The position numbers were made by a program, and so were the translations under genes. The notes beneath the pieces were generated by a model that did no database searches, had not been told where the DNA came from, and saw nothing but the letters and a program-made list of their open reading frames with translations. A DNA stretch of 1,341 bases from Escherichia coli (GTDB taxonomy: Bacteria > Pseudomonadota > Gammaproteobacteria > Enterobacterales > Enterobacteriaceae). This document shows, piece by piece, positions 637 through 806 of this stretch; position 1 is the stretch's first letter, and each line of letters starts with the position of its first letter. The stretch is from NCBI RefSeq assembly GCF_003334255.1, contig NZ_QOWU01000161.1. One strand, written 5' to 3'.

Positions 637-641
637 TGTGA

Positions 642-650
642 CGTTCCTTT
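642..650 (-). promoter_or_regulatory. Shine-Dalgarno region for the TerB-like gene
   Basis: Minus strand reads AAAGGAACGTCACA-ATG, with AGGA about 8 nt upstream of the ATG at 636..634. Confidence 0.5.
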
Positions 651-768
651 GGGTGGGTGAGCCAACGCCCGGGAGCGATCTGCCCACAGAGAAAGTCACA
701 CTGACCACTCCGTAAGCTCACCCCCGAAAGGCTCTGTGGTTGATATGCGCCGGGCGTGGCGCGGAGAC

Positions 769-792
769 AAAAAAGGCCCGCAAAAGCGAGCC
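769..792 (-). terminator. Rho-independent terminator closing the tRNA cluster
   Basis: Minus-strand RNA GGCUCGC-UUUU-GCGGGCC: a 7-bp GC-rich stem (one G-U pair) with a 4-nt loop, followed directly by UUUUUU (plus 774..769). It begins 14 nt after the tRNA-Arg(UCU) 3' end. On the plus strand the same hairpin has no U-tract, so it is unidirectional. Confidence 0.6.
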
Positions 793-806
793 GGGAAAAA
801 TAAGTC

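Follow-up and report, generated by a model that had tools for sequence, protein, structure and literature searches.

How is a gene transcribed when a terminator stands directly before it and no promoter can be recognised between the two? This question is raised by a 1,341-bp stretch of Escherichia coli DNA (assembly GCF_003334255.1, contig NZ_QOWU01000161.1; the whole stretch is called the window below), in which the genes for a TerB-family protein (TciA) and a small DUF3927 membrane protein (TciB) follow a cluster of transfer RNA (tRNA) genes, with all genes on the minus strand. We analysed the interval between the last tRNA gene and the TerB gene, positions 806 to 637, and on balance favour a model that combines a terminator, read-through by a polymerase modified by a Q-type antiterminator, and a leader acting as a translational gate. 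Judged from sequence and from analogy with Shiga toxin (Stx) phages, transcription of TerB through Q read-through when the prophage is induced is likely, and it is probable that this is the main route. That the leader is a functional regulator of translation is a more tentative proposal drawn from fold models, to which we give slightly less than even chances.

The terminator itself was readily located. A first-pass annotation had placed a strong intrinsic terminator at 769..792, and both a consensus scan of the minus strand and folding put a stem followed by six U residues there. The stem, GGCTCGC-TTTT-GCGGGCC, has seven pairs, six of them G-C, with a 4-nucleotide (nt) loop, and is followed by TTTTTTGTCT, so that the tail of the transcript reads U6 and then GUCU. 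Folded alone it reaches -14.0 kcal/mol (z = -2.9), a value equalled by 0 of 200 shuffles. It begins 14 nt past the 3' end of tRNA-Arg(TCT) at 807, and it aligns with a feature in the GenBank record of phage 933W, 'possible rho-independent terminator upstream of the stx genes', which follows argO. While sequence, conservation and homology are observed directly, termination is the activity that they predict. A literature match to the terminator sequence turned out to be a paper on eukaryotic promoter activity and was discarded.

Between this terminator and the TerB gene, no sigma-70-like promoter was found by a consensus scan of the minus strand from 792 to 636 at 9 of 12 matches. A position-weight scan of 806..637 gave a best site of only 2.08, where the best score of shuffled sequences was 4.0±2.0 and 82% of 1000 dinucleotide shuffles reached at least 2.08. 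The same weight scanner gave 11.8 for a site before tRNA-Ile (1096..1068), 12.7 for lacUV5 and 12.2 for lambda PR, and it recovered pT and pR' of 933W at their annotated coordinates; from argO to stx2A in 933W it found nothing above 2.3. The only -10-like stretch in the interval (CATATC, CTAATT, CACATC or CAATTC across homologues) shows the weakest conservation in the leader, which speaks against a hidden promoter. No complete consensus for sigma-54, sigma-28 or sigma-E and no complete CRP site were seen on inspection by eye only, and no antisense promoter was found in the leader, where the best plus-strand score was 1.65. The first-pass annotation had found no convincing -35/-10 pair before TerB and had proposed promoter prediction on the minus strand; the consensus and weight-matrix scans of that strand agree with it.

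The genomic context suggests a source of transcripts further upstream. E. coli JE86-ST05 (locus L001) and three other genomes match the window at 100% identity, and E. coli 83972 / ABU 83972 (NC_017631.1 1186603-1187944) matches it at 97.4%. Of 5426 complete E. coli genomes, 275 carry the whole 1341-bp arrangement and 881 carry the terminator, leader and TerB start together. In JE86-ST05 the order on one strand is RusA, Q, a small open reading frame (ORF), methylase, tRNA-Ile, tRNA-Arg, tRNA-Arg, TerB, DUF3927, SASA esterase, DUF1378, DUF826, holin, lysozyme, Rz and terminase. The Q-like antiterminator (phrog_304, 2e-102) lies 1.7 kb upstream. A pR'-like site, TTGCAA-17-TATATT (L001 7610-7638, score 11.2), overlaps the 3' end of Q, and a tR'-like hairpin with a T-run (L001 7693-7707) is found about 55 nt past it, both being consensus matches only. 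TerB and TciB are thus downstream of Q and of the pR'-like site, on the same strand and before the holin and lysozyme genes. From Q to the holin gene there are 19 terminator-like sites, compared with 6.8±2.8 in shuffles.

Stx2 phages match the window through the methylase, the tRNAs and the terminator as far as position 758, and then carry stx2AB. On this alignment, TerB-TciB occupy the stx2 slot of a lambdoid prophage late operon. The expression of Stx via Q-mediated terminator read-through is the accepted model (reviewed in PMC8065619), and differential RNA sequencing (dRNA-seq) of strain Sakai detected pR' and a primary transcription start site that appears to drive the tRNAs, with no start site reported directly before stx2A (PMC7547250). 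A Q-modified polymerase must pass the terminator to reach the lysis genes, and TerB would therefore be co-transcribed on induction. The earlier suggestion that TerB is transcribed by Q-type read-through, as stx is, is supported in part, namely by the architecture (Q-like gene, pR'-like site, stx2 slot, same terminator), while its word 'mainly' is something that we infer.

The region upstream of stx2A (933W, Stx2a_1447) retains the terminator, together with a hairpin resembling P0 (GCGCC-GGGTCT-GGTGC) and a comparable Shine-Dalgarno (SD) region, and is without a core of about 83 nt (anti-SD, segment 1, P3 and segment 4; Table 1) that is present in the TerB leader. From these sequences, a single boundary sequence seems to underlie both the TerB leader and the 5' region of stx2, with a deletion or insertion separating the two versions. 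When window 747-792 is set beside 933W (L004) 2538-2615 and L002 4549-4627, the P0-like hairpin GCGCCGGGTCTGGTGC is seen to be kept upstream of stx2A.

On the other side of the two genes, a full-length match to the small RNA (sRNA) STnc100 (143 bits, E = 1e-32) was observed at L001 10364-10569, which is 23 nt beyond window position 1 and between TciB and the esterase gene, where sRNAs of the PasD type have been described (bioRxiv 10.64898/2026.05.13.724894, Storz lab). PasA, PasC and PasD were ruled out as the identity of the leader, since their positions around the esterase gene fall outside the window (bioRxiv 10.64898/2026.05.13.724894).

The roughly 130 nt before TerB, in which the first-pass annotation had looked for a promoter, are more than a spacer. 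The U-tract is separated from the TerB ATG by 132 nt, and from GCGCC (762) to the ATG these comprise a leader of about 125 nt with predicted structure, which is conserved regardless of the sequence upstream. Homologues of the leader were collected by BLAST against E. coli genomes and phages, by an exact-word scan of viral contigs, and by a scan of species-representative genomes with a pattern without the loop arms. They belong to Escherichia, Klebsiella, Citrobacter, Pantoea, Leclercia and Franconibacter, all in the Enterobacterales. The 159 occurrences reduce to 76 distinct 70-nt upstream contexts, and a hairpin with a T-run precedes the leader in 67 of them, ending 9-21 nt (rarely more) upstream. 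There are 48 different hairpin sequences, for example GGCTCGC..GCGGGCC, ACCCGCC..GCGGGT, GGCTGCC..GGCGGCC and GGCTGCGCA..TGCGTGGCC. The contexts that lack this element comprise a decayed remnant, hairpins with point mutations, a single AT-rich lineage and a single locus from Franconibacter.

In 8 of the 11 representative loci that were scanned whole, no tRNA gene was present. In Klebsiella phage Kp4871-1 only 52 nt separate the hairpin from the Q-like gene before it (phrog_753, 6e-70), and a TTGCAA-17-TTGAAT site precedes the hairpin. This places the hairpin in the tR' position and makes TerB the first late gene. The first-pass annotation had assigned the terminator to the end of the tRNA transcript, which fits its place after tRNA-Arg(TCT); this is not its sole association, since the hairpin accompanies the TerB leader in many contexts without tRNA. 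These contexts suggest that the terminator belongs to the cargo boundary, beyond the tRNAs alone, and that unmodified polymerase would be stopped just before this cargo wherever it is located.

At one locus (L068 4700-5730, IMGVR_UViG_2788499822_000003), an intact terminator and leader, with the SD-pairing arrangement kept, precede an unrelated gene. This gene encodes a 281-amino-acid (aa) protein with a signal peptide (phrog_6856), a relative of which is named 'TAXI family TRAP transporter solute-binding subunit' by RefSeq, and the arrangement is also found in E. coli Iso00041 (H102). Therefore, the terminator-leader cassette is not tied to TerB. The leader is more conserved than its gene, travels with the terminator and also precedes another cargo gene.

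Incomplete copies were observed as well. Truncated leaders consisting of the terminator, P0, the 5' arm and the loop are followed by unrelated sequence and no TerB at L052 6040-6400, L056 2950-3300 and L098 4590-4950; these look like deletion scars and show turnover of the slot. A decayed leader with the 5' end of TerB lies between insertion sequence (IS) elements, outside an intact prophage, in E. coli FDAARGOS_401 (L006 3001-3208) and about ten other genomes (H90-H99). Its loop is mutated (CTCTGTAGGC) and the ATG is missing, and the annotation given to it is that of a partial DUF3927 pseudogene.

Between TerB lineages, the leaders are 79-99% identical, compared with 48-55% for the TerB coding sequences (38-43% for the protein). 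The P0 hairpin is paired in 98.8% of alignment cells, with changes confined to the loop or to wobble pairs, and the anti-SD/SD complementarity and the 18-nt loop are invariant across the six genera. The loop and flank arms were fixed by the first search pattern; the loop, CCACAGAG and CCUUU are invariant also in 8 loci found by a pattern that did not require these arms. A search for relatives of the single TerB protein returned only sequences 96-100% identical, which added no divergence for covariation. No Rfam family was matched in 637..806 when the window was scanned with Rfam 15 at E<=10, the hits being noise only at E >= 0.09 (a eukaryotic long non-coding RNA model and suhB).

Three further features of the leader sequence were observed. 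UGUGAC in the loop (695-700) is complementary to the invariant GUCAC (637-641) directly before the AUG, and CUCUGUGG in the same loop is complementary to CCACAGAG (739-732), so that one loop has two possible long-range contacts; none of these bases varies. The G-run of segment 1 (717-725) is variable in length, with GGGGTGAG at one end of the range (the window has GGGGGTGAG) and 6-11 consecutive G, seen in several phages, Evi among them, at the other; it also varies at L008, L031, L035, L071, L081, L097 and L133. This homopolymer polymorphism lies in the switching segment and could tune or phase-vary the fold.

Fold models were built with RNAalifold on 32 distinct leaders (alignment A1), which are closely related sequences with leaders at least 74% identical. 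The consensus comprises P0, pairing of CCUUU (731-727) with AAAGG (650-646), pairing of GGGGUGAG-CUU (724-714) with GGCUCACCC (664-655), and an inner stem. A refined 'closed' model adds P3 (711-701 with 682-672) and a possible loop-to-flank pairing of CCACAGAG at 739-732 with CUCUGUGG at 691-684. The predicted CCUUU:AAAGG pairing, which overlaps the ribosome-binding site, is kept in 32 of 32 sequences. In the closed fold, 96.1% of cells are paired, compared with 40-49% in slid controls, and five pairs are changed on both sides, for example from A-U in 14 sequences to U-A in 13 (pair 63/115 of A1) and, elsewhere, from A-U in 27 to G-C in 4. None of 500 shuffles reached its paired fraction, its count of cells with both-side changes or its covariation score, and 130 reached its number of pairs; this shuffle control is not a probability. 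P3 occurs with 14 distinct arm pairs, including exchanges of G-C to C-G, U-A to C-G and A-U to G-C. When the window sequence is folded by itself, the energy minimum is another structure, the 'open' one, in which GGGGUGA has UCGCUCC (679-672) as its partner, leaving the ribosome-binding site free. The open fold is 91.2% paired across the alignment, chiefly via wobble changes, and the predicted gap between closed and open is 1-5 kcal/mol in all lineages.

We propose that the interval 806..637 on the minus strand would act as the left boundary of a late-operon cargo slot. In the lysogen, the terminator would stop the pT-tRNA transcripts and the unmodified transcripts from pR', and the cargo would be silent. 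After induction, Q-modified, terminator-resistant polymerase from pR' would read through toward the holin and lysozyme genes, placing TerB-TciB mRNA within the late transcript. In the closed fold, CCUUU (731-727) would pair with the SD sequence AAAGG (650-646) and GGGGUGAG with GCUCACCC, while the inner hairpin would present the invariant loop. In the near-isoenergetic open fold, pairing of GGGGUGA with 679-672 would free the ribosome-binding site, giving a predicted translational gate. Kinetics, a trans factor, a ligand or temperature are candidate triggers of the change.

The leader is a candidate new cis-regulatory RNA. Going further, 762..637 may represent an undescribed family of phage-borne cis-regulatory RNA, in which a portable cassette of terminator and bistable leader would double-lock cargo in the stx slot of lambdoid prophages across the Enterobacterales, the terminator at the level of transcription and the SD-sequestering fold at that of translation. 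This fold would then open on a specific signal, be it a ligand, a factor acting in trans or co-transcriptional kinetics while Q-modified polymerase is at work, possibly via the invariant 18-nt loop. From the fold models, we regard this as a tentative idea that is rather less likely to be right than wrong.

Several points weigh against these proposals. The silence of TerB in lysogens is something that we infer from sequence and analogy, and pT looks strong, so leak past the terminator could matter. The variant in the window itself slightly favours the open fold (+1.1 kcal/mol), and one of its closed-fold pairs is U·U. The alignment is shallow, and many 'compensatory' cells may trace to few events; the recombinant phage Evi breaks the covarying 42/127 pair, and the arms of the putative pseudoknot never vary, partly having been fixed by the search pattern. 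An RNA thermometer was rejected, with the closed-open gap predicted to shift by no more than 2.5 kcal/mol from 20 to 42 °C (about 1.6 in the window variant), which is little temperature dependence. In a crude duplex test of the leader against STnc100, the pR' short RNA, the tRNA trailer and the downstream spacer, none beat shuffles.

Leak is also at the centre of an alternative that we consider unlikely, in which pT (and any read-through from pR') passes the terminator and gives constitutive low-level TerB-TciB as lysogenic-conversion cargo, with the leader only tuning the leak. Both proteins are classed as morons by PHROGs, and morons usually act in lysogens. The pT-like site, at 11.8, is near lacUV5, dRNA-seq shows the homologue of pT to be active in lysogens (PMC7547250), and the terminator consists of one hairpin of 7 bp. 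However, the hairpin with its T-run is kept before the leader in those 67 of 76 contexts, including loci without a nearby tRNA promoter, the predicted SD-sequestering fold argues for silencing, and late genes typically have the location seen here, with Q before them and the lysis genes behind. Read-through on induction is the reading that we prefer to constitutive leak.

A second explanation, with equally modest prospects, is compatible with read-through and concerns the leader only. It could be a non-regulatory linker at a module junction, kept alike by recombination among lambdoid phages, with folds that are incidental to a G+C-rich sequence and with the terminator as the only part that matters. 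The junctions with Stx2 phages and JLK-2012 lie at the terminator or at the start of the leader, the same leader stands before two TerB lineages about 40% identical and before the unrelated gene in L068, truncated leaders exist (L052, L056, L098), and the 187-nt stretch 806..620, terminator hairpin included, folds with only z = -2.4. Nevertheless, sequences that differ by up to 20% keep 96% of cells paired, far above the slid controls, several pairs are changed on both sides, and the anti-SD/SD complementarity and the loop do not vary among the genera; recombination alone fails to explain structure-preserving substitutions.

The least probable alternative is an unrecognised promoter of TerB's own, activator-dependent, alternative-sigma or very weakly sigma-70, which would make the conserved blocks of 762..637 DNA signals and TerB an autonomous moron: the interval is strongly conserved as DNA and consensus and weight-matrix scans are blind to activator-dependent or non-sigma-70 promoters, but the best sigma-70 score falls under the shuffle mean, the -10-like stretch is poorly conserved, the inspection by eye showed none of the other complete sites, what the substitutions preserve is base pairing (G-U to G-C, U-A to A-U) and not fixed motifs, and in Stx2 phages the core is deleted although pR' is still relied on.

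The features of the window are collected in Table 1.

Table 1. Features of the 1,341-bp window, listed in the direction of transcription.
Feature	Position	Strand	Basis or detail
DNA methyltransferase gene, 3' part, cut by window end	1099..1341	-	ORF 1099..1332; PHROG DNA methyltransferase families, E = 5e-47; RefSeq annotation in L001
Promoter-like site TTGAAG-17-TATTAT, 10 nt before tRNA-Ile	1068..1096	-	score 11.8; homologue of 933W 'pT, putative tRNA promoter', same spacing
tRNA, anticodon CAT, ileZ-type tRNA-Ile2	983..1058	-	ARAGORN call = Met
tRNA-Arg (TCG), argN-type	897..973	-	
tRNA-Arg (TCT), argO-type	807..883	-	
Intrinsic terminator (predicted)	765..792	-	stem 792-786/781-775, loop 785-782, U6 774-769, tail to 765
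P0 hairpin GCGCC-ACGCCC-GGCGC, first part of conserved leader	747..762	-	
CCACAGAG (739-732), complementary to apical loop, and CCUUU (731-727), anti-SD	727..739	-	RNAalifold consensus, pair counts
Segment 1, GGGGUGAG-CUU	714..724	-	predicted to pair with 664-655 (closed fold) or 679-672 (open fold)
P3 hairpin, 711-701 with 682-672	672..711	-	18-nt invariant loop UGUGACUUUCUCUGUGGG (700-683)
Segment 4, UGGCUCACCC (664-655), and SD region AAAGGA (650-645)	645..664	-	
TerB-family protein (TciA), 143 aa	205..636	-	PF05099, E = 2.2e-12, residues 26-138; phrog_632 'tellurite resistance', 7e-69; RefSeq WP_001672427.1
DUF3927/TciB small membrane protein, 54 aa	44..208	-	phrog_1470, 3e-24

The tRNA at 983-1058 is called Met (CAT) by ARAGORN, and its homologue is named tRNA-Ile (ileZ, AUA-reading after lysidine modification) in RefSeq and in Stx-phage records, because the annotation convention differs. 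The TerB start is the ATG at 636..634, with AAGGA 8 nt upstream, and RefSeq has the same start. An N-terminal extension of TerB from a GTG at 708 was ruled out, as 1-nt indels in homologues break the frame and the RefSeq start is 636. The TciB start codon and the TerB stop codon overlap by 4 nt (205-208), which suggests translational coupling; therefore, a gate on TerB translation would gate TciB too. A plus-strand terminator-like site (TCCGCAGCCGCTCTGCGGG followed by a T-rich stretch) was noted at 593-611 within the first TerB codons, forming a hairpin at about codons 10-15 on the mRNA strand. It is probably incidental, being absent in other TerB lineages. A search of the literature on tciA/tciB and ileZ/argN/argO found nothing relevant.

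A terminator and a promoter-less cargo behind ileZ-argN-argO are already annotated in the 933W record; here the cargo is TerB. The stx2 arrangement, in which an own-promoter tRNA cassette and a terminator are followed by promoter-less cargo that is read by Q-modified polymerase, would thereby extend to a very common non-toxin cargo. The prediction that follows is that TerB/TciAB acts in lytic growth and not in the resting lysogen, which bears on the role in phages of unexplained 'tellurite resistance' proteins. If functional, the leader would be a simple example of layered control of prophage cargo.

Among known systems, phage morons are likewise accessory genes in the late region, and both proteins here are 'moron' in PHROGs. 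Morons, however, carry a promoter and a terminator of their own, whereas no promoter was found here by sigma-70 scans and the terminator is upstream of the genes. The leader can be compared with bistable or SD-sequestering leaders (lambda cIII, Rfam Lambda_thermo; RNA thermometers), with which it shares two exclusive predicted folds, one of them hiding the SD sequence and both conserved. It differs in having no sequence or Rfam match and little predicted temperature dependence, and it is known from prediction, so that the likeness is one of mode of action and not of membership. In the Gifsy-1 IsrK/antQ system (PMC4825925), read-through of a terminator yields a prophage transcript that stays translationally inactive as long as its leader has not been remodelled. 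There, a short sRNA isoform activates in trans, whereas the TerB leader had no trans partner in the crude duplex test and the sequence of its hairpin is not conserved.

Lambda-type late control (Q, pR' and tR', with 6S RNA or StxS) has in common with this locus a Q-like gene, a site overlapping its 3' end that resembles pR' by consensus, a terminator-like hairpin for a short RNA about 50-70 nt on, and further terminator-like sites before the lysis genes. The terminator studied here is not tR' in this prophage but lies downstream, after an embedded tRNA operon with its own promoter; the tR' position is, however, where the equivalent hairpin stands in the Klebsiella relatives. The closest counterpart is the argO-terminator-stx2A junction of 933W, Sp5 and Stx2a_1447, which has the same methylase/ileZ-argN-argO cluster, a pT-like promoter, a homologous hairpin (GGCTCGCTTTTGCGGGCC and T6), a P0-like hairpin, the SD region CCAAAAGGAAC, the same place, with Q on one side and the esterase and lysis genes on the other, and, ahead of the cargo, no good sigma-70 site. 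The two differ in their cargo, stx2AB there and TerB/TciA-TciB here, and in the structured core of about 83 nt, which is present here and missing before stx2A. If the leader is functional, this core would explain a difference in post-transcriptional control between stx2, which is without it, and TerB.

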